A DNA stretch of 64,000 nucleotides from a virus (lineage: Duplodnaviria > Heunggongvirae > Uroviricota > Caudoviricetes). The notes under the pieces are model-generated. The model was given only the letters and a program-made list of their open reading frames with translations, was not told the origin of the DNA and did not search any database. Shown piece by piece: positions 38,881-54,695 of this stretch. The DNA lies in IMG/VR virus record IMGVR_UViG_3300029887_000004. One strand, written 5' to 3'. The translations under genes were made by a program, and so were the position numbers. Every line of letters begins with the position of its first letter. The stretch's first letter is position 1.

Positions 38881-38891
38881 CTCTTTTTATT

Positions 38892-40133
38892 TTAATTATT
38901 TTTTCTTTCATGTTCCATTCTCCAATCGATACATCTCTGCAGATAATCAACGTATTCTGGATTTTTACACATGCATTTACCCATATCATCACTGATCTTA
39001 GCTACATCCTGTCCATTTGCAACAGTTACTTTCATAACAATGTTAAGTGGTGATACTTCTGTATCATTGGATAAGTATGTTCCGATGCCAAATGCAACAT
39101 TTGTTCTTCCATTAAACACTCTAAAAATCTCATCGGCTTTTTCAAAATTTAAAGAATCAGAAAACAGCAGAGTTTTTGTTCTTGGATCAATACCAAGACT
39201 CTGATAATGATCAATCATCTTCTGCCCTCATTCAATCGGATCTCCAGAATCATGACGTACACCAGAAAATAATGTGGCGTATGTGAGCTGGAAATCTTTA
39301 AGAAAACAATCTGTTGTAATTGTATCAGTTAATGCGATGCCGTTAAGAACTCCATATTCTTTGATCCAGGCATTCAATGCATACCAATTTGAATATGCTG
39401 GATTATGTTTATGATTTCCCTGACCTACACACATAATCCATTCGTGTGCCATTGTTCCAACCGGTGTTACACCGTATTTTTTGGCCAGATACACATTGGA
39501 CGTTCCAATGAATTTTGAAGCAGAATGCATTGTATCATTTAGGTGAGAAAACTTTTCCACAACCATTTCCTGGGCTTCTGCAGATAATCTTCTACGAAGA
39601 CCAAACTCCGAAAATGTTCCTGCATACCAATTTCCATATTTCAGTTTGTTGAATTTCTCATCAAGACGTTTTTCAAAGCTTTCAAGAAGCTCGTCATAGT
39701 TGTACTTCATACGGAAATATACTTCATTTACAATTGCAAGAACAGGAATCTCATACATAGAAGTATTGAGCCATGTACCTGCTGTTTCAATACTAAGTCC
39801 GCATTCTGCATCATTTGAAATCGTAAAATCTTCAAAACGTGGCTGCCAAAGTCTTAAGAAGTCAACGTAGGAACCTTTGATCCATTTGATACTATTGAGA
39901 CAAATCAGCTCCTCTTCTGTAAACCGAAGATTGCAGTATGCTTTAACCTGTTCTGTAATTTCGTCTACCATATCTGTAGTAAAATATACATCTTTGTTTC
40001 GACATTTGAATGTCCAAGTCGTTTTATAATCCGAGAACTGATGATAAATTGCCTGACCCATACTGTACTTATATAAATCATTAGACAGTAGACTTGTAAT
40101 AATCTGATCTAATTTCATATCTCTATTCTCCAA
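38892..40133 (-). pseudogene. pncB: nicotinate phosphoribosyltransferase (PncB) interrupted by a single in-frame TGA at 39228-39230, at the conserved DPxEW position
   Basis: The two track ORFs (301 aa and 108 aa) are collinear and in the same frame: ...RHDSGDPIE-TGA-GQKMIDHYQSLGIDP...FGIGT. E. coli PncB has W at this point ([13 protein letters not shown]). Other tryptophans in the gene are TGG. Confidence 0.6.
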
Positions 40134-40632
40134 TCACATTAATCTGGCAACTTCTCATAACTTCGAGTGCTGCTTTATGTTTCTCAGGTGTCGATCCAGC
40201 ACAGCAGCTGGCATCTACTGTAATTTCTGTTTTTGGAAACACTGCTCTTAAAATCAATGCATTTGAAATCACACAGATATTCGTCGTTAAACCGACTAAC
40301 TCAATATCACCTCTAACCCATCCCAATGTAATCCATTGCAAAGTTCCAAAACAATCTTTATTTACATACATGCAGTTAGGAACTTCAAGTCCATCTACAA
40401 TCTTCCAGCCTTTTGAACCGTAAATACAATGTTTTACTGGAAGTTTTCTTCCTTCCTGAGTATTCAAATAATCGTCATAATGCGTATCTCTTGTAAAGAT
40501 AATTTGATCTCCACGATTGTAATACTCCTCAATTTTCTTTTTTACATTCGGAATGATCGCCTGTGCTTCTTCCGATCCAAGGCTCCCATTTACGAAATCA
40601 TTCTGCACATCTACTACAATTAAAGTTCTCAT
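40123..40632 (-). CDS. pncA: nicotinamidase / pyrazinamidase (isochorismatase family)
   Basis: LIVVDVQNDF together with the catalytic-Cys context TNICV. 169 aa. Confidence 0.7.
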   Translation of the reverse strand: MRTLIVVDVQNDFVNGSLGSEEAQAIIPNVKKKIEEYYNRGDQIIFTRDTHYDDYLNTQEGRKLPVKHCIYGSKGWKIVDGLEVPNCMYVNKDCFGTLQWITLGWVRGDIELVGLTTNICVISNALILRAVFPKTEITVDASCCAGSTPEKHKAALEVMRSCQINVIGE

Positions 40633-40835
40633 TGTTTATTCTCCTCTCTTACTTCGTCAAATCTCTTTACCCAGTCCTCAAATGACACATCGTCTCCCAC
40701 TGTGCCATCGTATTTACACATCCAATATAGAGTTTTCTTTCTCTCGTATTCCAAGTCATCTCTTAAATTATGAATAATTGACTGAGCAAAATCTTTCATG
40801 TGATTGTATTCGCTTTTTAAGACTAATCCAAACAT
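40629..40835 (-). CDS. hypothetical protein
   Basis: 68-aa ORF, ATGA overlap with pncA. Confidence 0.4.
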   Translation of the reverse strand: MFGLVLKSEYNHMKDFAQSIIHNLRDDLEYERKKTLYWMCKYDGTVGDDVSFEDWVKRFDEVREENKQ

Positions 40836-41215
40836 TAAATTTCCTCTTTATCTTCTGCAAGTTTATTCCAGACACTTGCAATTTCTGACATCACTTCTTC
40901 TACGGTTTTGCCATCCGTTGAAATTCCTAATCTATCAAGATATTCCTTTAATTCAGACATCGTGTTTTCTATTATTTTTTCCTCACTTTCCAAAATTTTA
41001 GTAATCGTTACTAATTTCTAATTTCGATTTTTTTTCGAATCTATCTACATATTCTCTGACACGTTCGTATGCTGCAGGAACACTAATATGTTCTTTCAGT
41101 AAAAGTTCTTCTACAGCTGCTCGTTCAATAAGAATTTTTCGATCGTGTTCTTCTTGCGTCATAATAATCACCTTATAAGTTTGGCTGACCAGTTTTATAC
41201 CAGCCAGCCATTTTT

Positions 41216-41596
41216 TTAGTCTAATTCATCAAGCATTTTCTGCAGATCTTCAACGGACGCATTTCGAAGTGCTTCATCCTGTTTTGTAGCAATAATCTGC
41301 ATAATCTTCTGTTTCTTCTCTTTACGTTCTGCAGCTTCCTGCCGATTCTTTTTCTCTTCCAGTTTCTCATTAAAGATATATTTTACAATCTCAATCTTAG
41401 TCGCAAGAATATCATCTTCCTCGGATTTAGTCTGAAGCAGACTTTCTTCATCCGTCTTCTTTACTTCTGCATTCAGCGTCTTAAACACTGTATCCAGCGA
41501 TCCAAGCGGAAGATCATATAAATCTTCTACTGCAATCTGTCCCTTATACGGGAAACGATATTTACCTTTTACTGCTTTTTCAAACATATTACTCAT
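41216..41596 (-). CDS. hypothetical protein
   Basis: 126-aa ORF. Confidence 0.5.
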   Translation of the reverse strand: MSNMFEKAVKGKYRFPYKGQIAVEDLYDLPLGSLDTVFKTLNAEVKKTDEESLLQTKSEEDDILATKIEIVKYIFNEKLEEKKNRQEAAERKEKKQKIMQIIATKQDEALRNASVEDLQKMLDELD

Positions 41597-41613
41597 AATT
41601 TTATTCTCCTTTA

Positions 41614-43677
41614 TTAAAATTTGATTTTCATAATTCTTTCTGTAGCACCTTTAACTTTTACAACAAGCTCATTGCGCTGCGTCAGACTAAAACCAACACC
41701 AGAGAGCTGATCATCGACGTCTGTTACACTACACTTTGCACCAAGTGCTTCAAATACTTTACGATGTGGAACTAATTCATTCTTAAGATATTCCACAAAG
41801 AAACCATTCGGCTGTTCTGGATTTACACATCCATTCAGGAAGAAGAAAAGATGTTTATTCCCGATCCCATTCTGCTCATCAAAATAGTTCGGGCTGTAAC
41901 TGATTACAGATACAGGTGTAAACTGATTTGTCTGTACTCCCCATACTTCTCTACTAGAAGTAACCGAGTGACCAAAAAGTTTTTCTTTGATGGTAAAGTT
42001 TCCGTTCGTATCCATAATTACTTCTGCGACGTCTACGTCTCCACGCACTGGGTTATTGTATTCAAACGAATAGATCTCGCCATCGAATTCAATTTCTGCT
42101 TTAAATCCTTTACTTCCTCGGTTGGTATACTGATTTACAAAGAATCTGTATGCGCCAGGAATCATTCTCGATTTGTCCTGCCATGTAATATTTTCCACTG
42201 CTGGCTTCCCTGGCATACTGCTATATGGCTCAATCACATCAATATCAAGCTGACCACCAAGTTTCGACATAGATGGTTTTCTATCACTACCAAAATAGAT
42301 TTCATGACCATTTGGTTCAATACAGTGAGCATCAAGATCACTGTTGTCATTCTGATCCTCGTTCCACATAATAGAGAATCTAAGCACTCCATCTACATTT
42401 CCACCAGCATTCTTTACATTCTGTTTGATATCAGAATCGGTAATGTTTCCTGTATATGCCCAGCTCAGACCATTGTTCCATTTGAACATTGTGTTGGCAT
42501 TCGAATTTTCTGGGGCAATTAAAGAAACAAAGTTTTTCTCATGTTTATTCTCTACAAATACTTCAACCTCTTTCGCGGTCGGAAGAACCTTTTCTACGAA
42601 ATCCTGTGCTGTCACTTCTTCTACTCTAGAAAATTTCTTTGGATTAACTGCTACAGATTTTGACATCTCTGTAAAAATGTCTCCTCTACCAGAAATTCTC
42701 TTCGCTGCATCTTTATTAGAAAATAGAATATTATTTACTGAGATATCATCCAGATTTGCAAAGCGACGCTTCAGAGAATCCATATACCCAAGTTCTGTAA
42801 GAGTTTTCTTTGCATCGTCCAGCATTCTCTGAGTATAAATTGGCTTACTTCTTTTATAGTTGCTGGGTGCTACAATCTGCTCATATTTTTTAACTGCAGT
42901 ATCAAGATCCATTCCTTCACTTACATTTACAAGTAGTGTTCCAATAGAATGGTTTCTGATTTTACCAATAACAGCTCCTGCTTTCAGAGATTTCTCCCAA
43001 ACATACAAATCTTTTTCTTCTTCTGGAAGTTTGTCGTATTCCTTTTTGTATTTCTTGAATTCAACCAGCGGAACCCTCCACTCTGCTCCACGATACAGCG
43101 TATTGGAATTAATCAGCTCAAGAATTGTTTCCACAGAATCCATAGTGATCTCATCCAGAGAACGTTTAAATACGTTTTTAATATCTCTGTATTCACCATG
43201 GATATTACCTGCAGATCTACGAGAGTCAAATACAAACTTATTAGGAAGTCTCATATAAAAGTGATCCCACTGATGAGATTTTCCGTTGATCATTTCAAAG
43301 TTCTTATCTGTGCCAATATTTTTAAGCTGACTTACAAAAACATCGACTACCTCTTCGTTATGGATAAGTTTGGAAAGTGCCTTGACTACCGGCTCATAAA
43401 TAGTTCCAGACATATCTACATCCCAAATACTTTCCATTTTATTATCCTTGATTACAACCACAGCGCCGATTGTACGAATGAACTGGCGGCAGCAGGTACA
43501 GTCATGTTCTCTTCTCTCTCTAAAAATATTGTTCGTTCCTGGCGCAAAGCTATCGAGATATGTATCCCACAGCAGTTCCTTGTCTACGTCCACTTCGAAT
43601 AACTTATCTGCATTTGCGGACATTTTATCGAAATGTTTCTGAAGCTTCTCCTTAAAAATTACGAACTGATCTAACAT
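41614..43677 (-). CDS. large hypothetical protein (687 aa)
   Basis: Long intact ORF with no recognised motif, sitting next to the NAD salvage genes. Confidence 0.55.
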   Translation of the reverse strand: MLDQFVIFKEKLQKHFDKMSANADKLFEVDVDKELLWDTYLDSFAPGTNNIFRERREHDCTCCRQFIRTIGAVVVIKDNKMESIWDVDMSGTIYEPVVKALSKLIHNEEVVDVFVSQLKNIGTDKNFEMINGKSHQWDHFYMRLPNKFVFDSRRSAGNIHGEYRDIKNVFKRSLDEITMDSVETILELINSNTLYRGAEWRVPLVEFKKYKKEYDKLPEEEKDLYVWEKSLKAGAVIGKIRNHSIGTLLVNVSEGMDLDTAVKKYEQIVAPSNYKRSKPIYTQRMLDDAKKTLTELGYMDSLKRRFANLDDISVNNILFSNKDAAKRISGRGDIFTEMSKSVAVNPKKFSRVEEVTAQDFVEKVLPTAKEVEVFVENKHEKNFVSLIAPENSNANTMFKWNNGLSWAYTGNITDSDIKQNVKNAGGNVDGVLRFSIMWNEDQNDNSDLDAHCIEPNGHEIYFGSDRKPSMSKLGGQLDIDVIEPYSSMPGKPAVENITWQDKSRMIPGAYRFFVNQYTNRGSKGFKAEIEFDGEIYSFEYNNPVRGDVDVAEVIMDTNGNFTIKEKLFGHSVTSSREVWGVQTNQFTPVSVISYSPNYFDEQNGIGNKHLFFFLNGCVNPEQPNGFFVEYLKNELVPHRKVFEALGAKCSVTDVDDQLSGVGFSLTQRNELVVKVKGATERIMKIKF

Positions 43678-43721
43678 GATATTTTCTCCTTCTTTATGTT
43701 TTTCTTCTATTTTGTTATCTT

Positions 43722-44768
43722 TTACTCTACTTTGCTCTCTGTTTCCTCCATCTTATTGGTTGTTTCTTCTTTTACATTATTCTCCGGACTTTCTTCTTTA
43801 TTATTTTCACCAACTACATTTGCTTTTTCTGGTTCTTTATTTTCCTTTGTATCTTCTGTAGTATTCTCTGCATCAGAAAGCAGTTTTTCAACCTTTTTTA
43901 CGATTTCTTTTGTTGATTCGGTCTGTTTTTCTTCCTCTTCTTTTTTAGATTCGAGTTTCTTTTTCTCTTCTTCAAACTCCATCATTGCCTGAAGATATGC
44001 TTCTTTCTGAATTGCAATCTGTTCATTTCTTCTCTCTTCTTCTTTTTTAGTTGCTTCTTCTGCTCTTCTTGCACGACGTCGTTCATTTCTCTCATGACGT
44101 TTCTGTTTCTGACGAAGTTTAATTTCTTCCTCTTCTTTGTCTAATGCGGCGAGCTTCTGCTGACATTCATATACTTTCAGAGCATTCTTGACTTTGGATA
44201 CATAAGATTTTGCATATTTAAACTCATAAGCTTTCTTCTCAATACCTTCTGACGTATACACGTCATTATATTGTCGTTTTGCATATGCGATGTATAATGC
44301 TCTTTCAAGAGAGAATGTATCATTTTTGTCGCATACTGTTTTTACTTTTGCTTTCGTCCAAAGATCATCATTGAAAGTCACTTCCACCACTCGATTTGGT
44401 ACAATAATATTGACAGAGCATACACCCGACTTATAGATATACTCTTCCATTTTGTTTTCAATACGTTCCCTCTGTGTTAATCCTACTTCCTGTTTTCTCA
44501 TTTCTTTGTTCTCCTTTTTAGCATTGAATGTAAATGTATCATTTTTATTTCCTGAGTCAGAGTTTGCAACAACTTTTTCAAGACACTTTTCTTCAAATAT
44601 AAAATCAGCACCGCAATTTAACCTATATGCACTACAATCAGAATACAATGTTATTTCAGTTATGATATATTTATGCCCACAGTAACATTTCATACTTGGC
44701 ACAAAAGTAGAACAATCAATGTCTTTATAATCCTTAACTCTTACAATATCTCCTACTTTGAAACTCAT
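43722..44768 (-). CDS. hypothetical protein with Lys/Glu-rich C-terminal low-complexity tail
   Basis: 348-aa ORF. The upstream gene ends in a tandem TGA-TGA. Confidence 0.55.
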   Translation of the reverse strand: MSFKVGDIVRVKDYKDIDCSTFVPSMKCYCGHKYIITEITLYSDCSAYRLNCGADFIFEEKCLEKVVANSDSGNKNDTFTFNAKKENKEMRKQEVGLTQRERIENKMEEYIYKSGVCSVNIIVPNRVVEVTFNDDLWTKAKVKTVCDKNDTFSLERALYIAYAKRQYNDVYTSEGIEKKAYEFKYAKSYVSKVKNALKVYECQQKLAALDKEEEEIKLRQKQKRHERNERRRARRAEEATKKEEERRNEQIAIQKEAYLQAMMEFEEEKKKLESKKEEEEKQTESTKEIVKKVEKLLSDAENTTEDTKENKEPEKANVVGENNKEESPENNVKEETTNKMEETESKVE

Positions 44769-44774
44769 ATTTCA

Positions 44775-45227
44775 TCACGCCTCCACTTCTTTTGATAATT
44801 CTTTATACTCTTCCAGAAGCTTTGCAAATTTTGAATTCGTTTCTGCAAAAATCTCATATTTTTTATCATCTTTTGTTGACTGAATAATATCATCCATCAT
44901 TTGTCTTAACTGATGTTTTTTATATTGTATTTTTGCTAATTCCTTTCGTCTTTTCTCTCGATCTTCGTAAGCTGTCATGTCAATAGCACCTGGGTCGATT
45001 TTACAAACAATTTCCTGCGTGATTTTTTCGTTTTCATGAAAATGTTTCATATCATCCAATGTAAGAATATTTTGAATTGTTAAAATTTGACCTCTACGAT
45101 AACCAGTAACTAATACCTTATCTCCCTTTTCGTATTTATAGCCGTCGTTATAAATTGCAAAATATTCTTCCTTCCCCATAAGATTAATTCCTGCTACGGC
45201 TATATAGCCTGTTAATTCTTTTGCCAT
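44775..45227 (-). CDS. hypothetical protein
   Basis: 150-aa ORF. Confidence 0.5.
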   Translation of the reverse strand: MAKELTGYIAVAGINLMGKEEYFAIYNDGYKYEKGDKVLVTGYRRGQILTIQNILTLDDMKHFHENEKITQEIVCKIDPGAIDMTAYEDREKRRKELAKIQYKKHQLRQMMDDIIQSTKDDKKYEIFAETNSKFAKLLEEYKELSKEVEA

Positions 45228-45428
45228 GTTTTATTCCTTCTTATGTTTATATATTTTCTAAAGAAATGTGCCTTTCATCTCGTTTTATATTTCAGTCATG
45301 CGATTTGAAATGCCTAAAAATGGATGGACGGCGTATCCATCATCTCAGGTACTCTTTGCAGAGTGCGTCGGGAACCATTTCCAACCTCATTTTTAGACAT
45401 GTTAAATCGCATGACCTACTATTCTCCG

Positions 45429-45607: not shown

Positions 45608-47155
45608 TTATACAGCCATTCCTTCTTGATCCGTATGGGTCGCTTCGTACTCTAGACGATTATATTTTCTCCAAATCATTCCACGCCTTGTTCTTACAAT
45701 TTTTACTTTGTCTAATAAATTACTCTTTAGTAATTCATATTCTTCTTGTTTTATATTTATAGAAGGGTATTTGACTGTTTGTGCTTTATATGTAAATCGT
45801 ATTTTGAAATTACCATTAGGTAGTTTTTGCATGGATTCTACTTCTGCGATATTTCCTTTATGCTTTCCACTATTTATGTAAATTAAATCTCCACATTTCA
45901 AACAATATGAATTACAAACAAAAGTGCGTTTACCAGGTTTAATTTTCTTACCACGAAATTGTCTCATATTGTTTATATATTCTTTTTGCGTGACTCGTTT
46001 AGACGGAGCATTTGGAAGCCTTTCCTTATATAATGTATTACCACTTTTTTCTTTTCCATCACGTACATCTATGTATTTTGCATCACTAAATGTCTCCATG
46101 CTCCTGTCATTGCATCGTTTTTGATCTACAATATAGATATTCTCCGTTAATGTCACATCCTTGTAATCATTAATACAAACAGCATCCGTATAATGAAATT
46201 TTCTTAAACCGGTATTCCTTCTATTAATTTTTGTTTGATATCCATACCCAACTTTGACGTCATATTTGCCAGAAAGCCTTTCAAAAAGTTCCCAACGAAC
46301 CATATTCATATAAGTACTGTCTTTGTATGTATCCGATAACTTCATACTCTTGACTTTCTCAAAATATTTATTGTCGTTATTATTGGAATGCACCTTCCGA
46401 TGACAACTATGACATAAAGATATTAGATTACTTGGTTTATCGGTTCCTCCCTTTGAACGCGGTTGGATATGATGAACTTCAATCACAACATTTTTATTTG
46501 CGCCACACAACCGACATGTATGTTTATCTCTATCTCTAACATAAGCTGCTGCATTTTCATATCCTTTCATTTCTCCATTTTGATAATCTTTTCCTGATAT
46601 TTCTTTCCCGTCAGCTAAAGCTTTTATCATCTGGATATCAAATTTAGCAACTTCTACAATTACCTTATCTACTGGAATCCATGACGCAATTTTATCTATT
46701 AAACGAATATGTGAATCAATTTTATGTTGTATTGATGGAGCAAACCATCCTTCTTCATTTCCATTTTTATATGTTGGATTATGTATAGTTTTGTAGTCAA
46801 TGTTCTTATTTTTTCTATACCTAATTCTGGATCTTCTCGTTCTTCTATATCCATTTCGATTTGTTAATCTATCCGACATTCCTTTTAATAATTCGACTTG
46901 TCCAGCTAAATACTCATGATAATTATCACTGACAGAAAATCCTATGTTCAAATATCCACTATCAATTTTTAATTCGAAAATATCTCTATTTTCAAAATCG
47001 CTTTGATAATCGTCTATTCGTTTTATTACTAATGGATCATGATTAATGATTTTTGCTTTATTATTTCTAAGCAAATAACCAGCTCTACCGTTTGAAATCG
47101 GTACACACGGTTTATCATTTTTATCTACTACTAAAGTAAAATCTAAATATTCCAT
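45608..47155 (-). CDS. iscB: IscB (OMEGA) RNA-guided nuclease, Cas9 ancestor: PLMP-like domain, RuvC-I, Arg-rich bridge helix, RuvC-II, HNH, RuvC-III
   Basis: N-terminus KPCVPISNGRAGYLLRNNKAKII...PLVIKR (PLMP domain); RuvC-I ELKIDSGYLNIGFSV; bridge helix RTRRSRIRYRKNKN; RuvC-II IVEVAKFD; HNH CRLCGAN...EVHHIQPRSKGGTDKPSNLISLCHSCHRKVH; RuvC-III HYTDAVCIN. 515 aa. Confidence 0.85.
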   Translation of the reverse strand: MEYLDFTLVVDKNDKPCVPISNGRAGYLLRNNKAKIINHDPLVIKRIDDYQSDFENRDIFELKIDSGYLNIGFSVSDNYHEYLAGQVELLKGMSDRLTNRNGYRRTRRSRIRYRKNKNIDYKTIHNPTYKNGNEEGWFAPSIQHKIDSHIRLIDKIASWIPVDKVIVEVAKFDIQMIKALADGKEISGKDYQNGEMKGYENAAAYVRDRDKHTCRLCGANKNVVIEVHHIQPRSKGGTDKPSNLISLCHSCHRKVHSNNNDNKYFEKVKSMKLSDTYKDSTYMNMVRWELFERLSGKYDVKVGYGYQTKINRRNTGLRKFHYTDAVCINDYKDVTLTENIYIVDQKRCNDRSMETFSDAKYIDVRDGKEKSGNTLYKERLPNAPSKRVTQKEYINNMRQFRGKKIKPGKRTFVCNSYCLKCGDLIYINSGKHKGNIAEVESMQKLPNGNFKIRFTYKAQTVKYPSINIKQEEYELLKSNLLDKVKIVRTRRGMIWRKYNRLEYEATHTDQEGMAV

Positions 47156-47203
47156 AATTCATTTCCTTTAATTAATAACTCGACTTATAGTCGGTAATAC
47201 TCT

Positions 47204-47232
47204 TTGACAATGTTATTACAAGTTTTTATGCT
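47204..47232 (+). promoter_or_regulatory. candidate sigma-70 promoter (TTGACA -17- TATGCT) reading toward the repeat array
   Basis: ctcTTTGACAatgttattacaagttttTATGCTtaa. Transcription could instead run on the minus strand as an iscB 5'-leader. Confidence 0.35.
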
Positions 47233-47397
47233 TAAATCACTTGCGACAAGAAAGTTAGACGTAACGCATGTTTAAATCTAAACGATATAATTTGATACTA
47301 GAGTTACATATCAATATATTTTGTTGTAATAACGTAGATTAAATCTAAGTCTATTTTTATTTAACGTCTTAATTTTATAGAGTTATTTTATTTTGAG

Positions 47398-47695
47398 GAT
47401 TTGCAACCCTATAAAATTACATTCCTCTAAAACAGCATCGGAAAGAGGAAAAACCGCGCAAGGATTTACAACCCTATAAAATTACATTCCTCTAAAACAA
47501 GCAGACTACAATCGGATTTCAGTAGTGGGATTTGCAACCCTATAAAATTACATTCATCTAAAACAGCATCCTCGTAATCAATCAAAAGAACGGTGATTTG
47601 CAACTCTATAAAATTACATTCATCTAAAACCTTAACATAGACGTTTTGGAAAGCAGATGGATTTGTAACCCTACAAAATTACATCCCTCTAAAAC
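47398..47695. CRISPR. CRISPR-like array: five 36-bp direct repeats (consensus GATTTGCAACCCTATAAAATTACATTCCTCTAAAAC) with four unique 29-30-bp spacers
   Basis: Repeats at 47398, 47463, 47529, 47595 and 47660. Spacers are 29, 30, 30 and 29 bp. Mismatches rise from R1 (0) to R5 (4), and a possible sixth degenerate unit follows. The minus-strand repeat reads GTTTTAGAGG..., like type II repeats. Confidence 0.7.
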
Positions 47696-47858
47696 TTACT
47701 ATGTAATTTATAATAGGTTTGTGGATTTTCAGCTTGAATCAGCCATTCAGATGTGATATCCTAAGACTGAGGATAAATTCCTTCAACCTATTAATTTCTC
47801 TTTTTGAAGATCATCGTGATCTGGTCGCCAAACTTTCTCACAATGGTCTTCTATGTAT

Positions 47859-47913
47859 ACTATATATAGTGGTTTTATTTTCGCTAGACCACTATATATA
47901 GTATTTATTTTCC
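47859..47913 (+). terminator. rho-independent terminator hairpin (14-bp perfect stem ACTATATATAGTGG / CCACTATATATAGT + ATTTATTTT)
   Basis: Perfect inverted repeat followed by a T-rich tract on the plus strand, about 160 bp past the array. Confidence 0.45.
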
Positions 47914-47932: not shown

Positions 47933-48130
47933 TCAGAAGAAGCTCTTTGATGTCGGACAACCAAGACATAACATACATTGTGTTAAATCGCACATATGAT
48001 GTGCCTTAATAAAATCCTTATCAGCAGCCTGTTCATCTGTGATTACGGTTCCACATTCGTCCATATTCTGGATCTCGTTTTCTTCATAAACCTTTCCTGA
48101 ATATTTTCCTAACCTTTTCATTTGTCTCAC
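47933..48130 (-). CDS. hypothetical Cys-rich protein
   Basis: 65-aa ORF. Confidence 0.45.
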   Translation of the reverse strand: MRQMKRLGKYSGKVYEENEIQNMDECGTVITDEQAADKDFIKAHHMCDLTQCMLCLGCPTSKSFF

Positions 48131-48137
48131 CTCCTTT

Positions 48138-48614
48138 TTATTTCGTTTTAATTTCGATCTTTTTGTTGATCAGCACCTTACTGTATTCTCTCCCGTCAAT
48201 AATATTCTCTCTTTGAATTTCTGTAACTTTGACTGGTTTTACACCTTTTTTCGTAACACATAATACTGCGTCACCAATCTGCAGATTATTGATGAATTTT
48301 CTCCATCCTTTAACTCTTGGCACTCGCCAAATGTATTCTTTCGTACCAATACCATCGTAATTGATATGAACACCTTTGATCAGCGCACCTGGCTGACCTT
48401 TATATACTGTCCGAATTGTTTTGGCACCATTTCTTTTCATGATAAGATATCGGATATATCCATCTACGAGATAACCATTCTTATCCAAAATAATTGGCTT
48501 GTCTTGATGATTTGTACGAAGCCAATATTTTTCAAATCGTTCCATCTTTTCTTGAGATGGATGAGAATCAAGAAACTGATCTGAAATTTTGATGTCATCA
48601 ATATTCATCTGCAT
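48138..48614 (-). CDS. hypothetical protein, possible ParB/Srx-fold domain
   Basis: ILDKNGYLVDGYIRYLIMKRNG resembles the ParB N-terminal motif; the match is weak. Confidence 0.4.
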   Translation of the reverse strand: MQMNIDDIKISDQFLDSHPSQEKMERFEKYWLRTNHQDKPIILDKNGYLVDGYIRYLIMKRNGAKTIRTVYKGQPGALIKGVHINYDGIGTKEYIWRVPRVKGWRKFINNLQIGDAVLCVTKKGVKPVKVTEIQRENIIDGREYSKVLINKKIEIKTK

Positions 48615-48632
48615 TATTTTATTCTCCTTTCT

Positions 48633-49061
48633 TTACACTGCGTTTCCTTTCCCAACAAGAAAGTTTTCGAAATCTCGTTTCATGAATCTGAAATTAATAC
48701 CCTGATTGGAACTATATTCATCATCTGCATTCTGATATTCTCCAATCCACTGTTCAAATTCCTGATCCTGATTATTCTGCGCTGCATAAACCATCAATGC
48801 AATTAACGCTGTTTTACACTGCTGATAAACATTTGCAGACACTTTTGTATCCTGAAGACACTCGTTGTAAAATTCGATGTCGTCTGGATCTACTTTCTCA
48901 TTTACATGAGTATGTACAAAATCAATATCATTCTGATCAATACGATCATCAACACCAATGATTGCAGATTCTTCACCCTCTGAATTTTCTGATGAGTCTT
49001 TGATACTTTCGCTCTCTGCATCTTCATTTGGTTTATTCTCTTTAATATGTAAAAAATCCAC
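48633..49061 (-). CDS. hypothetical acidic protein
   Basis: 142-aa ORF. Confidence 0.5.
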   Translation of the reverse strand: MDFLHIKENKPNEDAESESIKDSSENSEGEESAIIGVDDRIDQNDIDFVHTHVNEKVDPDDIEFYNECLQDTKVSANVYQQCKTALIALMVYAAQNNQDQEFEQWIGEYQNADDEYSSNQGINFRFMKRDFENFLVGKGNAV

Positions 49062-49080
49062 TAATAAAGTATGTAAATAA

Positions 49081-50136
49081 TCAATCTTCTGCTGAATTAC
49101 TTTTTTTGTCCTTCGTGTGTTTATCCTGTTCTATTTCAATCCAATCAGTATCATTGACTTTGATTTCTTTCATGTCATTAAATGCAATCAGGAATTTTCC
49201 AAAATTTTCTGGTGAAACTCCTTCATCTAAGGCTCTTTTCATAAGAGTCATCCATGCCATAAAATCTTTTGACACAAATAATTCAGCTACTTCTGTATGA
49301 TCGAGTTTATCTGCGTAAGGAATTAACATATTAAAGTATTTGTTCAGTGTATCAAATTCTTCTTCTGTTCCGTTCTCATTAAGATACTTGCAGATATCCC
49401 TTGGCGCCTTTTTCCATTCTTCTAAATGAAACATCGCCATAACGCATTCGATGATCACTCTTTCCCAGATGCCTTTTTTCTTGTCTAACTCATTCAGCAT
49501 CGTACAATCTTTAAGAAAACGATTATTATCTTTAATCCGTTTAATTTTATCCGCAAATGTACCAATGTAAGTAAACGCCTTCTGGCTTACATTCATTGGA
49601 ATAGTAGAGTTATATAACATGACAAGATCGCAGGTATCTTCTGGAGTACATTCCTGATAAATTGCAGCAGACAACTGACATGATCTCATTCTCTTTTTCA
49701 GTTCTGGTGGGAAATCATTATAAGTTTTATTAACCAGATCAAATGTTTTGATTTCTTTGATCAGTTTTCCATTTTCATCTCTCATAGGTTTTCCATTTTT
49801 ATCCAGTTTGTTTCCTTGATAAGTCACATATCTATTCCGGATTGATTTAGAGATCTTATGCCCATCAAACACAAAACGTCTGAGCGCTTCTGTTCTCTGA
49901 CCACCATCCACTACGTATGTAGTAGTAAGCCCATCTTCTCTTTTTTCTTCTGCAAGAATAATGTTGGGAATGTAAATCCGTTTTGGAGATACAGTACTAT
50001 AAATCAAATTATTGATCATTTCATTTGACCAACAAAACGCTCTCTGGACTGCCTGATCAACAGTAATAACTTCCTCATCAATACTATCAACATAAGCTCC
50101 TACGCCCATCTGTTCGATTCTGTATTCATCTAACAT
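49081..50136 (-). CDS. DUF262 (ParB-like nuclease superfamily, DGQQR motif) protein
   Basis: VVDGGQRTEAL, the motif found in GmrSD/DndB-type N-terminal domains. Confidence 0.5.
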   Translation of the reverse strand: MLDEYRIEQMGVGAYVDSIDEEVITVDQAVQRAFCWSNEMINNLIYSTVSPKRIYIPNIILAEEKREDGLTTTYVVDGGQRTEALRRFVFDGHKISKSIRNRYVTYQGNKLDKNGKPMRDENGKLIKEIKTFDLVNKTYNDFPPELKKRMRSCQLSAAIYQECTPEDTCDLVMLYNSTIPMNVSQKAFTYIGTFADKIKRIKDNNRFLKDCTMLNELDKKKGIWERVIIECVMAMFHLEEWKKAPRDICKYLNENGTEEEFDTLNKYFNMLIPYADKLDHTEVAELFVSKDFMAWMTLMKRALDEGVSPENFGKFLIAFNDMKEIKVNDTDWIEIEQDKHTKDKKSNSAED

Positions 50137-50846
50137 TAATAATCCCTCCTAAGTATTCTTGTATTTGAGTTGTTCCGGATAGCTTTTAAGCTATCGTTAT
50201 AGAGTGACTTAGAAATATGTAAATTTTGAAGAATTTCTTCTTCATTAAATCCATCTGCAAGCATATGTAAAATTACACTCTGTACTCGTGATAATTTACT
50301 TGTATATTCTCTCATTAATGAAGACATTTCTTGATCATTTTGAAAGACGACATCTTCCACGGTTTTCCCAGATACAAATGTCTCCCAGAGCTGCATTCCA
50401 TCTTCGTCAATTTGAGAATAAATGGAAATATCAAATACAGGTTTCTCTTTAGGATTACCATCTTTATCGAATTTCTGCTTTCCAGTCTCTTCGTCAATAT
50501 CTGGAACAAAAACACAGCGTTTTTTACGTTCGATATCTCTTGTATATGTCCAATATTTTCTCCAAATATTTCCATATAAATACGTTTTAAAAGTGCATTT
50601 GACATCCGAATTGTATTTAAGTAAACTCGACAGAAAAACTTCTACTGCTAAACTTTCAAGTTCTGCATCATGAAGTGTCGGTAAATCTTGAGATGACTTT
50701 TTCTTTTTGTAAATCAAAGTTTTGCAGATTTTTTTAAGCTCGCGCATGTCGTTGTCTAAATACGTTTGCTGGATCTCATCTGCTTCTTCTGGTGTAAGAA
50801 ATTCTAATTTTTCTCTTTGAGTCTCTGTCAAATATTTGTATCTCAT
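50136..50846 (-). CDS. sigma-70-family sigma factor (regions 2 and 4)
   Basis: C-terminal HTH SVILHMLADGFNEEEILQNLHISKSLYNDSLKAIR matches sigma region 4. Confidence 0.6.
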   Translation of the reverse strand: MRYKYLTETQREKLEFLTPEEADEIQQTYLDNDMRELKKICKTLIYKKKKSSQDLPTLHDAELESLAVEVFLSSLLKYNSDVKCTFKTYLYGNIWRKYWTYTRDIERKKRCVFVPDIDEETGKQKFDKDGNPKEKPVFDISIYSQIDEDGMQLWETFVSGKTVEDVVFQNDQEMSSLMREYTSKLSRVQSVILHMLADGFNEEEILQNLHISKSLYNDSLKAIRNNSNTRILRRDY

Positions 50847-50857
50847 TTTTGCTCACC

Positions 50858-51541
50858 CTACCCTTCCAATATTTTCATCGCTTCGTCAAATTTTGCAGTT
50901 CTTGGTTTATAGTTTTCATATTCTCCATTGCCAGTTTTATTTAATTCAGTTTGCAGTTTTCCAAGAGAGTAATGGTACGTCAATGCATTTTTCATTGCCT
51001 GAAGTTTATAGATACATGCTTTCACATGTGCTCGATCAATAAGAATCCGTAAGAACAGATATCCGATTTTAGCAATTCTATGTGCTTGTGGTAATTTTCC
51101 ATCATGTTTATATGTATAAATAACGAGTGCATGTTTAATATCACTCTCTTCTGAATCAAGCTTAGACAAATATGTACTAAGAGATTCCAACATGTTGCTC
51201 AATTCAGATTCATCCCATGCAGCCAAACTTAAAAACTTTGTACACTCATCTTCAATCTGATCGAGTAAGTTCAGATCAACTACAATGTCATTTTCATTTA
51301 AAAATACACCTCCATTCCCTTTTGCTTTAGGAGAAACTGTTGGCTTGTTTCCATCCTCTCCAACCATGGAATATCCATTCCGAATCCAACCTAGTTTTTT
51401 GCTACGTGCATTCAACAGATTTTTAGCCTGTTTGAATGTAAACTGTTTTGCATTGGATGATTTTGTGGATTCCATGTACTCGCCAGGACGTATTGGATTT
51501 TCAATCACCCAATATTTTCCATTTGTGATAATGTAGTACAT
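50858..51541 (-). CDS. hypothetical protein
   Basis: 227-aa ORF. Confidence 0.55.
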   Translation of the reverse strand: MYYIITNGKYWVIENPIRPGEYMESTKSSNAKQFTFKQAKNLLNARSKKLGWIRNGYSMVGEDGNKPTVSPKAKGNGGVFLNENDIVVDLNLLDQIEDECTKFLSLAAWDESELSNMLESLSTYLSKLDSEESDIKHALVIYTYKHDGKLPQAHRIAKIGYLFLRILIDRAHVKACIYKLQAMKNALTYHYSLGKLQTELNKTGNGEYENYKPRTAKFDEAMKILEG

Positions 51542-51697
51542 TTTCTGATCACTCCTTCTTTATTTAATTTTAAAAATAGGTAAACTTAATATAGGTTCTT
51601 ATCGTTCATCAAATGAATAAGTACCTTTACGTATTGGTTATTCTCCTATTCTGTTTGTGTAAAATTGTGAAATAATAGCGAACTGCTCAAGATAGAC

Positions 51698-51726
51698 TTG
51701 CAGAATTGCAAATTAATATGTATAAT
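51698..51726 (+). promoter_or_regulatory. sigma-70 promoter TTGCAG -17- TATAAT on the plus strand
   Basis: acTTGCAGaattgcaaattaatatgTATAATgatc. Confidence 0.5.
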
Positions 51727-51732
51727 GATCTT

Positions 51733-51877
51733 AAGCAGGACATTGCTATTATTCGTTTAAGATGCTCCAACACCTTAAACACATATGAATATTGCTTGTT
51801 TTGCTTGTTATGTATAGGAAGGGATTCATACCGTATGCGCTCCAACGCAGGTATGGCTCCCTTCTTTTATTTTTGTT
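51733..51877 (+). ncRNA. candidate small RNA (~145 nt) between a consensus promoter and a strong intrinsic terminator
   Basis: Terminator GGAAGGGAttcATACCgtatgcgctccaacgcagGGTATggcTCCCTTC followed by TTTTATTTTTGTT. Internal stem ATCTTAA/TTAAGAT. No ORF longer than 8 codons in the 5' half of the transcript. Confidence 0.45.
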
Positions 51878-52018
51878 CGACAAAATTATAATACATCGAA
51901 CTAATGTTCTTGTCAATATATTTTCGAACATTTGTTTGTGTTGTTATAATTTTATCTTTCCTTATATTTCCATTTTATACCTCTTAACTTGCATATTCTA
52001 GCGGTAAATATTTCCATT

Positions 52019-52321
52019 TTATTCTTTTAAATGTGGTAAAATAATGTCATGCATAATACCTTCTCGATTGATGTGTTCGATATCTTGTATCGTAGAATAT
52101 AATTGCATATGTTCGATGATTTCATCTCTGTTAAGGAAAATAGTTTTTGCTTTTTTAATTAATTTACATCCTTCAGCAGGTGTAGTTATTTTTTTACTTT
52201 CTTCATTTTGATCATAATCAATTGTATAAATAAGAATTTTGTACTTCTTATTCTTTTTTTCAAGTTCTTTCATTTTCTGCATCGCTTGGTTATAATCAGA
52301 GTATTCATATGCTTCTATCAT
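52019..52321 (-). CDS. hypothetical protein
   Basis: 100-aa ORF immediately downstream of the MazF-like gene. Confidence 0.5.
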   Translation of the reverse strand: MIEAYEYSDYNQAMQKMKELEKKNKKYKILIYTIDYDQNEESKKITTPAEGCKLIKKAKTIFLNRDEIIEHMQLYSTIQDIEHINREGIMHDIILPHLKE

Positions 52322-52325
52322 CTTG

Positions 52326-52697
52326 TCATTCCTCCATTAATAATGTCTGCAAACTAATCTGCATTGCTCTGTTCACTTCTTTTTGCTTTTTGGGACTAAT
52401 CTCTCCGATCTTATCCAACAATCTAGCTTTATCTATTGTTTTAATTTGTTCACATGTTACTAACGAATCGGAACTTAATCCATTCAACGCATCTTTTTCC
52501 AAAATGACATGAGTAGGAAGATTGGGCTTCCTTTTTGATGTGATTGTCACGACTATGGTTGTTGGAGAATGTTTATTCCCAATGTTATTTTGGACAACAA
52601 GTGCTGGGCGTTTTCCGCCTTGTTCAGATCCTTTCGTTTTCCCGAAATCTACCCAATAGATTTCACCACGTTTAATTTCGCCACAATGTACATCCAT
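52326..52697 (-). CDS. MazF/PemK-family endoribonuclease toxin
   Basis: RGEIYWVDFGKTKGSEQGGKRPALVVQNN...PTTIVVTITS is the classic PemK/MazF signature. RBS GGAGGAA. Confidence 0.75.
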   Translation of the reverse strand: MDVHCGEIKRGEIYWVDFGKTKGSEQGGKRPALVVQNNIGNKHSPTTIVVTITSKRKPNLPTHVILEKDALNGLSSDSLVTCEQIKTIDKARLLDKIGEISPKKQKEVNRAMQISLQTLLMEE

Positions 52698-52740
52698 ACC
52701 CGGTTCCTCCTTTCTCTCTTGTTTTTCTTACGTTGAACTC

Positions 52741-52769
52741 ATTATATCAACATATCTTTAATATGTCAA
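52741..52769 (-). promoter_or_regulatory. consensus sigma-70 promoter (TTGACA -17- TATAAT) for the MazF-like gene
   Basis: Minus-strand reading TTGACAtattaaagatatgttgaTATAAT. Confidence 0.55.
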
Positions 52770-52894
52770 TACTTATTATAAATATATCTTTATTATTTTC
52801 GCTATTATATCACAATTTATCTTTATTTATATAAACATGTCTTTATGGATTTTCTTATTCAATTATGTTATAATCATTGACACGGAGGTGCAAT

Positions 52895-53224
52895 ATGATT
52901 AAATTAGATATTCAACATTTAATATTGAGCAAATATAAAAACCAAGCTGCATTCGCAGAAGCTACTGATCTCTCTTTGCCATCAGTATCAAAAATTTGTT
53001 CTGGTAATATGGCAAGCATTCGCTTTGAAACTCTTGAAAAAATTTGTGAAGCATTAGAATGCACCCCGAACGATCTACTTACTTCCGATAAAAACGAATG
53101 GGATACAAAAATTCCATCACATGTTACAGAATATATCGATCGAATGGAACATATCTCGCAAGAAATTCAGGATGCGAATTTCCGTTATAGAGCTGCAGCA
53201 TATCATAAAGAAAGCGATGACTAA
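52895..53224 (+). CDS. XRE-family HTH transcriptional regulator (Cro/CI-like), divergent from MazF-like gene
   Basis: HTH QAAFAEATDLSLPSVSKICSGN. Preferred start is the ATG at 52895 with RBS ACGGAGGTG, rather than the track's TTG at 52877. An extended -10 TGtTATAAT lies at 52866-52874. Confidence 0.7.
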   Translation: MIKLDIQHLILSKYKNQAAFAEATDLSLPSVSKICSGNMASIRFETLEKICEALECTPNDLLTSDKNEWDTKIPSHVTEYIDRMEHISQEIQDANFRYRAAAYHKESDD

Positions 53225-53240
53225 ACCAGCCATCGCTTTC

Positions 53241-53435
53241 TTACTGCTCATATTCAGATCCGCTCAAATCCATTCGAAAATTGATTTCTTGTATACACCA
53301 CCAATACAGTCTTTCTGCATCCTCATTATCTTTTCGATCTCGATCTGTGAAAATCATTAATTCTATTACATTCTCTTCTGACATATTTCTTAGATCTGCA
53401 GGTGTTACTGTATAGTCCAAATATTTTGGAATCAT
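53241..53435 (-). CDS. hypothetical protein
   Basis: 64-aa ORF. Confidence 0.4.
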   Translation of the reverse strand: MIPKYLDYTVTPADLRNMSEENVIELMIFTDRDRKDNEDAERLYWWCIQEINFRMDLSGSEYEQ

Positions 53436-53626
53436 TTTTCATTCAAACCGTTCCGTTTTAAGATTTCTGTTACTTGAGATACAGGAATACAAAATCTTCT
53501 GGATACAGCTTTCTTATCTTTGTATTTCTCGAAATCTTTTAAAATATCTTTATCTGTCCACTCTAACTGAATAGGAGCATTCATATGGTTTTCCATTGTT
53601 CTCTCCTTTTGAAATGTCTGATTCAT
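53432..53626 (-). CDS. small HTH-containing protein
   Basis: CIPVSQVTEILKRNG looks like an HTH. Confidence 0.4.
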   Translation of the reverse strand: MNQTFQKERTMENHMNAPIQLEWTDKDILKDFEKYKDKKAVSRRFCIPVSQVTEILKRNGLNEK

Positions 53627-53892
53627 TAATTGAAAACAAATTGAAAATCTTTATCGTTTATTTCACATGTCATGAGTTCTTTGTTGTTGTCAAGAATATC
53701 TACAACAGCACTTTCATATCTTGAATAAGCTGCTGTACATTCATATTCTTTACCTTCTGTAAAATGTTCATCGGTTTTTCTACAAATAGCCTTATTGTTC
53801 ATCTTATCCCTCCGTTTAAAACCATTCCAACATAGTCTTTAAATTCTCCAAAGCTCATTGTAATTGCTTTTACATTTTTCATATCGATCACT

Positions 53893-54426
53893 TTACCTTT
53901 CTAAATATTTTGTTGGTACTTCTTTAGTTAACCAAACATTATTCACAGACAAATAAAATTTATATCCATCTCTATGCATCTGACCAGATGCCACCTGATA
54001 CACAATTTCTTTTCCGTGTCTTTGTCCGACTTTTTCTGCAGTATCAACGTCACTTGAAAGATGAACATATAACCGGCTTTTTGGAATTAACCCAATCTGA
54101 TCGATTGACACTACGTATTTTTCGCCAGTTCCATGATATAAAAATTCTGGTGGCTGTTTCTCTTCTAATTCTACATCTACAGGAATCGAATGTCCTTGGT
54201 TGCATCTGATCAGTGTTTTATCTTCATTAAAAGAGTATCTTCCCTTCGAATCTGTTTCTACTATCTCGTACAGATGATCCAGATCGAATCCAGGATTGTC
54301 TTTCCTAATCCCGTCAATCAGTTCGACGACATTAGCCCACCCATGTTCATCCAAAGTAATGCCAATTGCTTCTGGTTTATGTCTGAGAATTAAACACATG
54401 TATTTACTAATATTTTCTAAGTTCAT
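53893..54426 (-). CDS. kptA: RNA 2'-phosphotransferase Tpt1/KptA
   Basis: ISKYMCLILRHKPEAIGITLDEHGW...HGTGEKYVVSIDQIGLIPKSRLYVHL is the KptA/Tpt1 family signature. Confidence 0.75.
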   Translation of the reverse strand: MNLENISKYMCLILRHKPEAIGITLDEHGWANVVELIDGIRKDNPGFDLDHLYEIVETDSKGRYSFNEDKTLIRCNQGHSIPVDVELEEKQPPEFLYHGTGEKYVVSIDQIGLIPKSRLYVHLSSDVDTAEKVGQRHGKEIVYQVASGQMHRDGYKFYLSVNNVWLTKEVPTKYLER

Positions 54427-54440
54427 GCTTTTACTTCCTT

Positions 54441-54695
54441 TTATTTAATTTTATTTTTCAGATGCCAAACAAAATCTTTTGAATCAAGTAATGAACCTTC
54501 AAACAATTTTTCACCTTCAGCTTCATAAATTCTCAACGATCCATCAAAACCAACCACAACATATTTTCCGTTATATTTTTCCATGTCAATCAGTTTCCAT
54601 TCAAGTGCTTGATACTGAGTTCCATCTTCCATCACATCTGCATATCCATCATATGTAAATAACGGAATGTCAAACATATAAATTATATTATCCAT
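54441..54695 (-). CDS. hypothetical protein
   Basis: 84-aa ORF. Confidence 0.45.
   Translation of the reverse strand: MDNIIYMFDIPLFTYDGYADVMEDGTQYQALEWKLIDMEKYNGKYVVVGFDGSLRIYEAEGEKLFEGSLLDSKDFVWHLKNKIK

Follow-up and report, generated by a model that had tools for sequence, protein, structure and literature searches.

A probable CRISPR-associated IscB locus of large gut phages, with a repeat:anti-repeat stem ahead of its omega-RNA scaffold

Described IscB systems and the phage locus

IscB nucleases associated with CRISPR were reported by Altae-Tran et al. (2021, Science 374:57), and their hybrid non-coding RNA (ncRNA) of array, anti-repeat and scaffold is given as active in a later account (PMC12660989). 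In DelIscB, an ncRNA with spacer, direct repeat (DR), anti-repeat and scaffold is active as one RNA, and its DR/anti-repeat hairpin can be shortened to a tetraloop; a split into one part resembling CRISPR RNA (crRNA) and another resembling trans-activating crRNA (tracrRNA) was left open in that study (Zhang et al. 2025, PMC12660989). Several independent CRISPR associations are known within IscB (PMC10734277). We analysed a locus of this kind in a stretch of 64,000 nucleotides (nt) of phage DNA from IMG/VR (IMGVR_UViG_3300029887_000004; hereafter the window, on the whole of which coordinates are counted). Its minus strand carries, in this order, a mini CRISPR array, an anti-repeat, a HEARO-type omega-RNA scaffold and an iscB gene. 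We consider it very probable that the locus encodes a CRISPR-associated IscB of a large (~200 kilobases, kb) gut phage, with a repeat:anti-repeat stem replacing the guide adaptor hairpin of the omega-RNA and a guide supplied in cis. A preliminary description of the window had presented this hybrid organisation as bearing on how tracrRNA:crRNA systems arose from omega-RNAs; the novelty was overstated, since CRISPR-associated IscB was already known to have the same hybrid ncRNA (Altae-Tran 2021, according to PMC12660989). The features of the locus are:

45608-47155, minus strand: iscB gene, 515 amino acids (aa), with a PLMP-like N-terminus and a RuvC domain split by HNH, predicted to lack the recognition (REC) lobe
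47181-47193, minus strand: terminal scaffold hairpin CGACUAUAAGUCG, terminator-like, directly before the iscB ribosome-binding site
47194-47353, minus strand: omega-RNA (HEARO) scaffold core, matched by Rfam, with pseudoknot strand AGACUUAG, nexus and central stems
47355-47385, minus strand: anti-repeat strand, with a 15-nt core (47370-47384), then a 3-nt bulge, ACGUU and AAAAU
47390-47397, minus strand: CUCAAAAU, a motif that immediately follows the terminal repeat and falls in the hairpin loop; its reverse complement is a type II-A leader end (ATTTGAG/GTTT)
47398-47433, minus strand: terminal (iscB-proximal) repeat GUUUUAGAGGAAUGUAAUUUUAUAGGGUUGCAAAUC, a consensus copy with 0 mismatches
47434-47462, minus strand: proximal spacer CTTGCGCGGTTTTTCCTCTTTCCGATGCT, the guide if used in cis
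47463-47695, minus strand: rest of the array, with repeats at 47463-47498, 47529-47564, 47595-47630 and 47660-47695 and three spacers of 29-30 nt

The locus shares with CRISPR-associated IscB, DelIscB included, a nuclease of IscB size, an array directly upstream on the same strand, and the succession of spacer, DR, anti-repeat and omega-RNA-like scaffold. DelIscB, of 457 aa, was found in an estuarine metagenome, whereas the protein of the window has 515 aa and occurs in large gut phages (DelIscB was compared by description only). What we found is a phage-borne gut clade of an already known kind of CRISPR-associated IscB, and not a new kind, because the same hybrid was reported in 2021 and has been developed as DelIscB. 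The accessible literature on CRISPR-associated IscB, the primary 2021 paper set aside, contains no mention of a type II-A-like repeat, an inverted leader-end motif, single-repeat variants or spacers matching sister phages.

Canonical IscBs of IS200/IS605 elements (HEARO, RF02033; OgeuIscB, 7XHT/7UTN) belong to the same protein family and also have a scaffold core upstream on the same strand and a 5' guide. They differ from the locus of the window in their TnpA/transposon context and in their guide adaptor hairpin, the place of which is taken here by the repeat:anti-repeat stem. Their guide comes from the transposon flank, whereas in the window it would be an exchangeable spacer. The locus is a clear natural example of the step from the fixed-guide transposon omega-RNA to the exchangeable-guide crRNA:tracrRNA. 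In two canonical relatives (L029 and L030), Y1_Tnp is encoded directly downstream, in L029 as a TnpA fragment. We found no Y1_Tnp within 10 kb on either side of iscB in four contigs with the same protein as the window; transposon ends were not searched for.

The array itself resembles those of type II-A CRISPR-Cas9 systems, with 36-nt repeats (GTTTTAGAG...AAAAC), spacers of 29-30 nt, a bulged repeat:anti-repeat duplex, a GAG/GTTT motif at the junction with the best-conserved repeat and, at the opposite end, a repeat that has degenerated. The effector is different, since it is an IscB predicted to be without a REC lobe, and no Cas1 or Cas2 Pfam families, nor csn2, were found in the called genes within 10 kb on either side of iscB. 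Moreover, the anti-repeat is fused to the end of the array, whereas the type II-A tracrRNA is a separate gene, and the leader-like junction is inverted relative to crRNA transcription. Short arrays beside a compact nuclease, with no adaptation genes and with spacers against competing phages, are reportedly found in the huge phages of Al-Shayeb et al. (2020) and with Cas-phi and Cas-lambda. Those systems have Cas12-type effectors or rely on host Cas proteins, whereas the window has an IscB with an omega-RNA-derived scaffold.

The nuclease, its scaffold and the repeat:anti-repeat stem

By its sequence, the protein is an IscB. It matched the NCBIfam equivalog NF040563 (guided_IscB) with 281.5 bits, for a cutoff of 175, as well as the Pfam families RRXRR (E-value 1.7e-35; 122.9 bits, cutoff 25) and HNH (1.7e-12). 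Its best matches among the solved structures of the PDB are IscBs (HfmIscB, 8e-30; OgeuIscB, 3.5e-25), and over residues 6-352 it can be aligned with the HfmIscB and IscB chains of known structure, with KIDSG, VEV, HH...CHSCH and HYTD conserved. The motifs of RuvC-I, RuvC-II, HNH and RuvC-III could all be placed: D65 (KIDSG), E168 (VIVEVAK), H228/H229 (VHHIQP) with CHSCH at 248, and H321/D324 (HYTDAV). We found no sign of a Cas9 effector with a REC lobe, as the single Cas9 match in the PDB (YnpsCas9, E-value 5e-6) was confined to the HNH region. The REC lobe is thus predicted to be absent, judging only by the length of the protein (515 aa) and by the alignment. Nucleases of 513-579 aa that are guided from CRISPR arrays, in a natural single-guide layout, would be candidates for compact genome editors. 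The C-terminus of the CRISPR-associated clade (513-579 aa) is ~70-130 aa longer than that of the nearest canonical IscB relatives (~440 aa), the excess being ~70 aa in the window. For residues ~350-515 there (45608-46100), Pfam hints of KOW and zinc-ribbon-like type were weak, and none of the solved IscB domains that interact with the target-adjacent motif (TAM) was matched.

The array (47398-47695) has five repeats of 36 nt, which recur every 65-66 nt, and lies 242 nt upstream of the iscB start codon, on the same strand. The start is preceded by ~215 nt of non-coding, structured RNA region, with the array beyond it; a hairpin-rich scaffold had been announced there, and we found it, including the hairpin CGACTataAGTCG at 47181-47193. 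The anti-repeat segment cttaattttatagagtt is also present, at 47368-47384, i.e., 10 nt away from the position that the preliminary description gave it (~47378-47394). It is, as claimed, the reverse complement of the repeat core: its 15-nt core at 47370-47384 corresponds to repeat positions 15-29, with 14/15 matches to repeats 1-3 and 15/15 to repeat 4. The letters "ag" quoted at the end of the repeat core do not occur in the repeat, which reads ...aaaattacat. The single core mismatch is a G·U pair in the minus-strand RNA. Past a bulge of 3 nt, repeat positions 11-15 are paired with ACGUU and positions 2-6 with AAAAU, so that nearly the whole 5' two-thirds of the repeat lies in the stem.

This inverted copy of the repeat core is confirmed as real and well conserved. 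Allowing at most one mismatch, the 15-mer has six sites in the 64-kb window, i.e., the five repeats and one inverted copy, with a chance expectation of 0.01 for the 15-mer and none of 100 shuffles reaching six. Folding of repeat 1 with the scaffold side, a check suggested from the start, gave a repeat:anti-repeat hairpin of -14.9 kcal/mol in the minus-strand RNA (z = -3.75; 0 of 200 shuffles as stable), and the minimum-energy fold retained this stem when the spacer and the full scaffold were added.

Relatives were available from 19 IMG/VR phage contigs (80-220 kb), from metagenome contigs with the identical protein and from distant loci at 43-75% identity, and these related loci derive from independent samples and contigs. 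They fall into ten repeat groups, with 43-98% protein identity, all of which have the array, the terminal repeat, CTCAA, a short variable loop, the anti-repeat, the scaffold and iscB. The array stands beside iscB, on the same strand, in every examined relative of at least 43% identity. Covariation was tested in eight of the ten groups and revealed both-sided changes at repeat positions 18, 21, 23, 25, 27, 28 and 30. In the cross matrix of repeats and anti-regions, the cognate duplex was the most stable in 8/8 columns and 7/8 rows, and the true assignment of repeats to anti-repeats was the single best among 40,320 permutations. Since the anti-repeat covaries with the repeat in the tested groups, the pairing is under selection. 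The anatomy, the relatives and the covariation support the proposed iscB-strand order of spacer, repeat, short loop, anti-repeat, scaffold and iscB. The ten repeat/anti-repeat versions, eight of them tested, amount to a mutational map of the stem and reveal the RNA strand in use. Contigs that break inside the terminal repeat were rejected as a case of variability, the breaks being an assembly effect.

The preliminary description had left the transcribed strand open, and the sequence evidence settles it: the transcribed strand is that of iscB (minus). We counted 21 G·U pairs across the repeat:anti-repeat stems, and ~50 G·U against two A·C cells in the scaffold; on the other strand, these G·U pairs would turn into A·C mismatches, and they hence indicate an iscB-strand RNA. 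HEARO matched the minus strand alone, and the guide would stand 5' of the hairpin, as in canonical omega-RNAs. The plus-strand promoter that had been placed at 47204-47232 is a consensus hit within omega-RNA sequence that is itself conserved, and sigma-70-like sites were not in excess in the scanned region (15, for 17.2 expected).

The comparison with omega-RNA covariance models proposed earlier gave a match to Rfam RF02033 (HEARO) of 53.6 bits (E-value 2.5e-9) at 47194-47353, with model positions 1-52 absent. Two relatives scored 55.8 and 44.3 bits. The HEARO family is now recognised as the IscB omega-RNA (PMC9755519). The consensus fold of the scaffold, from 16 sequences, has 41 pairs, of which 20 show compensatory (both-sided) changes, and in the terminal hairpin (47181-47193; consensus columns 250-262) three of the four stem pairs are changed on both sides in relatives. 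The canonical IS200/605 relative L029 (Clostridium sp. CM027, 38% protein identity) matched the full HEARO model with 140.9 bits. In L029, model positions 1-57 fold as a closed domain of several stems, immediately 5' of the conserved AGCUUAAG strand; this domain is the guide adaptor hairpin. The scaffold of the window lacks this 5' hairpin and has the repeat:anti-repeat stem in its place, and this stem ends exactly at AGACUUAG, the counterpart of AGCUUAAG in L029. Hence, the repeat has replaced the 5' strand of the guide adaptor hairpin, and the anti-repeat its 3' strand. The guide adaptor hairpin has been equated with the Cas9 repeat:anti-repeat duplex (Kato 2022, PMC9640706). The family provides unusually clean comparative evidence of the way in which a CRISPR repeat can substitute for one half of this hairpin.

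Use of the guides and entry of new spacers

We propose that one transcript, running from the array into the scaffold, folds its last repeat onto the anti-repeat. The proximal spacer (47434-47462) would then occupy the omega-RNA guide position and give a natural single-guide RNA, with which IscB, having kept the catalytic RuvC and HNH motifs, would cut DNA matching the guide. The remaining spacers might be used by trans pairing with further copies of the scaffold, and the system may have a role in competition between related phages. We infer all of this, i.e., co-transcription, cis use of the proximal spacer, trans use of the others, DNA cleavage and the role in phage competition, from the sequences. 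The preliminary description is thus partly supported: its natural single-guide anatomy holds, while the use of guides in cis remains a proposal.

Arrays in the relatives have up to eight repeats, and their internal repeats are mostly intact. Repeat mismatches climb with distance from iscB (0, 1, 1, 2, 3 in the window; 0, 0, 0, 2, 3, 6 in L019), and the degenerate repeat is always at the array end far from iscB. Spacers differ among phages encoding the identical IscB protein, and two pairs of group D phages share only the far-end spacer. Two spacers from the sister phages L009 and L010 match the helix-turn-helix (HTH) gene of phage L011, at 25/30 and 27/30 positions respectively, which suggests RNA-guided competition between related phages. 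The spacer turnover between near-identical phages points in the same direction. The flanks of these two protospacers, the only ones found, share no motif that could be a TAM or a protospacer-adjacent motif (PAM). In L011 (group B), the targeted HTH gene is part of an insertion of accessory HTH and SIR2-family genes just upstream of the array (2524-3478). A match of an L018 spacer to the iscB of the window (21/23) was dropped, as over the full length it amounts to 21/30 in A+T-rich sequence, similar to background.

The array also has a conserved boundary on the side of the scaffold. In all ten groups, CTCAAA(N)T comes next after the terminal repeat, except for GCCAAA in L012 and L013, and the remaining loop is variable. 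At this scaffold-proximal junction, AAAAC is followed by CTCAAA(N)T. Read on the opposite strand, this is ATTTGAG/GTTT, the conserved leader-repeat junction of type II-A systems (PMC5382924). This junction is reported to be both required and enough for integration, the last 10 nt of the leader and one repeat being sufficient for it (Wei 2015, as cited in PMC5382924). A Christensenella genome bin (L025, 1330-1350) has a canonical type II-A locus, in the order cas2, csn2, leader and array, with the leader end AATTTGAG/GTTTTAGAAGG; the phage repeats, in iscB-strand orientation, are identical to its repeat at 26-29 of 36 positions. When 185,579 species genomes were scanned for the repeat, no copy turned up in a prophage, and the only genome with a similar repeat was this same Christensenella bin. 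The motif after the terminal repeat seems not to have been reported previously.

Taken together, the inverted leader-end motif, the degenerate repeat at the far end and the sharing of far-end spacers suggest that the array gains new spacers at the end adjoining the scaffold. We have modest confidence in such a point of entry, which might involve adaptation proteins of a host type II-A system. A fuller scenario is more doubtful, and we put it forward tentatively: the inverted type II-A junction and borrowed host Cas1-Cas2-Csn2 would put new spacers in the cis single-guide position, while older ones would be pushed outwards and decay. The locus would then be an intermediate between the fixed-guide omega-RNA and the adaptive crRNA:tracrRNA, kept for warfare of phage against phage. 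A weakness of entry at this junction is that spacers inserted in this orientation would be transcribed in the sense opposite to the host's, so that the host PAM would be misaligned with the IscB TAM. Alternatively, the CTCAAA motif could have a role at the RNA level. Should the inverted leader junction prove functional, the family would allow a direct test of how adaptive spacer uptake arose in the lineage from IscB to Cas9.

The anti-repeat could have arisen by chance, or be what is left of a decayed repeat, and play no part in RNA pairing, as the region is very A+T-rich, the TATA palindrome in the repeat core makes short inverted matches easier, and the fold z-score is weak (-1.3) in one relative group. 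We regard this as extremely improbable, given the 0.01 copies expected, the both-sided changes that preserve pairing across eight groups with different repeats, and the coincidence of the site with the 3' strand of the canonical guide adaptor hairpin. A more serious alternative to guides in cis, to which we give somewhat less than an even chance, is a trans mode as in type II systems. There, the scaffold would be a tracrRNA pairing with every repeat, a host RNase (such as RNase III) would cut the duplexes, all spacers would be guides, and the cis hairpin with the terminal repeat would be only a precursor; this alternative overlaps with the explanation we favour. It would account for the long arrays with intact internal repeats, for the resemblance of the repeats to those of type II-A, at 27-29 of 36 positions, for the spacer differences between phages with the same IscB protein, and for the fact that the best protospacer match (27/30) is that of a non-proximal L010 spacer. 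It is also consistent with the tendency of substitutions in internal repeats to preserve anti-repeat pairing (12 kept, 7 lost), which those in the outermost repeats do not share (10 kept, 28 lost). Yet, the anti-repeat core begins 12 to ~40 nt past the terminal repeat in every group, which leaves no room for a separate promoter; none was evident by eye in this interval, and none is conserved in the repeat or the loop. The loci with a single repeat and no spacer (L001, L020 and L022) could function in cis only, and the stepwise decay of repeats outwards fits a weaker role of the outer units. In addition, DelIscB is active as a single RNA, and according to the discussion of the same study processing has not been demonstrated for any CRISPR-associated IscB (PMC12660989). 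Several observations weigh against the guide in cis and the CRISPR-associated IscB reading as a whole. The single continuous transcript from array to scaffold is assumed, and the promoter scan gave no convincing minus-strand promoter upstream of the array. Multi-spacer arrays with intact internal repeats suggest that proximal cis use is not the whole story, as may the 12 pairing-preserving against 7 disrupting substitutions in internal repeats, although numbers are small (9 against 7 distinct events). The four spacers of the window had no BLAST match in 50,697 phage records (searched among 36 pooled spacers, 32 of them from relatives), and exact 20-mers of three of them were absent from IMG/VR. 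Finally, the HEARO score of 53.6 is below the Rfam gathering score of 83. This shortfall is due to the missing 5' domain (model positions 1-52), and both the low score and the lack of an IS200/605 context stem from what sets CRISPR-associated IscBs apart from transposon IscBs.

A further alternative is that the array mimics a type II-A array and serves the host Cas9 and tracrRNA against rival phages, in which case the inverted copy would be incidental or a DNA-level signal for adaptation. The similarity to the Christensenella repeat (in the GTTTTAGA orientation), the type II-A leader-end motif adjoining the terminal repeat on the opposite strand and the absence of cas1 and cas2 from the phage locus would all be in line with this idea. 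We nevertheless find it improbable: in all tested groups the anti-repeat covaries with the phage's own repeat and is physically fused to the IscB scaffold, which would be unexplained if IscB did not use the repeats, and the array is always beside iscB and on the iscB strand, even in relatives with as little as 43% identity.

The single-repeat, spacerless variants are found at 3700-3760 in L001 and at 9700-9760 in L020 and L022. In L020 and L022, the single copy is joined to the 3' end of the open reading frame (ORF) lying upstream, and in L001 to intergenic sequence. The would-be guide of these loci is a sequence that continues differently in sister phages and could therefore target the undeleted allele, which would resemble the targeting of empty sites by transposon omega-RNAs.

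Phage setting and neighbouring features

PHROG families occur all along the window, which is phage DNA, and the identical IscB protein was found on at least 23 metagenome contigs of up to 212 kb. The neighbouring genes include GmrSD-like, PemK, ClpP and nicotinamide adenine dinucleotide (NAD)-salvage genes. The regions ~37400-45230 and 48100-54500 of the window, as well as L020, look like a phage accessory or counter-defence island. This island encodes a PemK toxin, HTH regulators, an RNA 2'-phosphotransferase, in some relatives a ClpP protease, and the NAD-salvage genes for NAMPT/NAPRTase, NAD synthase, a macro domain protein and an isochorismatase. By comparison with L020, a 493-aa HNH/NUMOD homing endonuclease (37399-38880) interrupts the NAPRTase region.

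A perfect 17-base-pair (bp) inverted repeat (ATACTATATATAGTGGT / ACCACTATATATAGTAT, 14-nt loop) lies at 47857-47904, with a 65-aa ORF on one side and the array on the other. Several group A relatives have kept it, and L014 and L028 have a diverged form. A plus-strand terminator had been proposed at 47859-47913; the scan made no terminator call there, and the inverted repeat, which is overlapped by a weak promoter-like site on the minus strand (47919-47891), is not a terminator of the canonical type.

On the other side of iscB, ~210 nt downstream of its stop codon and on the same strand, we identified a skipping-rope RNA (Rfam RF02924, 45315-45395, minus strand). It is full length and scores 71.3 bits, for a gathering score of 36.7, and its last hairpin is terminator-like. 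It was not found beside iscB in the other repeat groups searched. The gene with the GmrSD_N domain (48633-50136, minus strand) is a single 500-aa ORF in L020, L022 and L023, whereas in the window and in L021 it is represented by ORFs of 351 and 142 aa, probably split by a frameshift or a stop codon.

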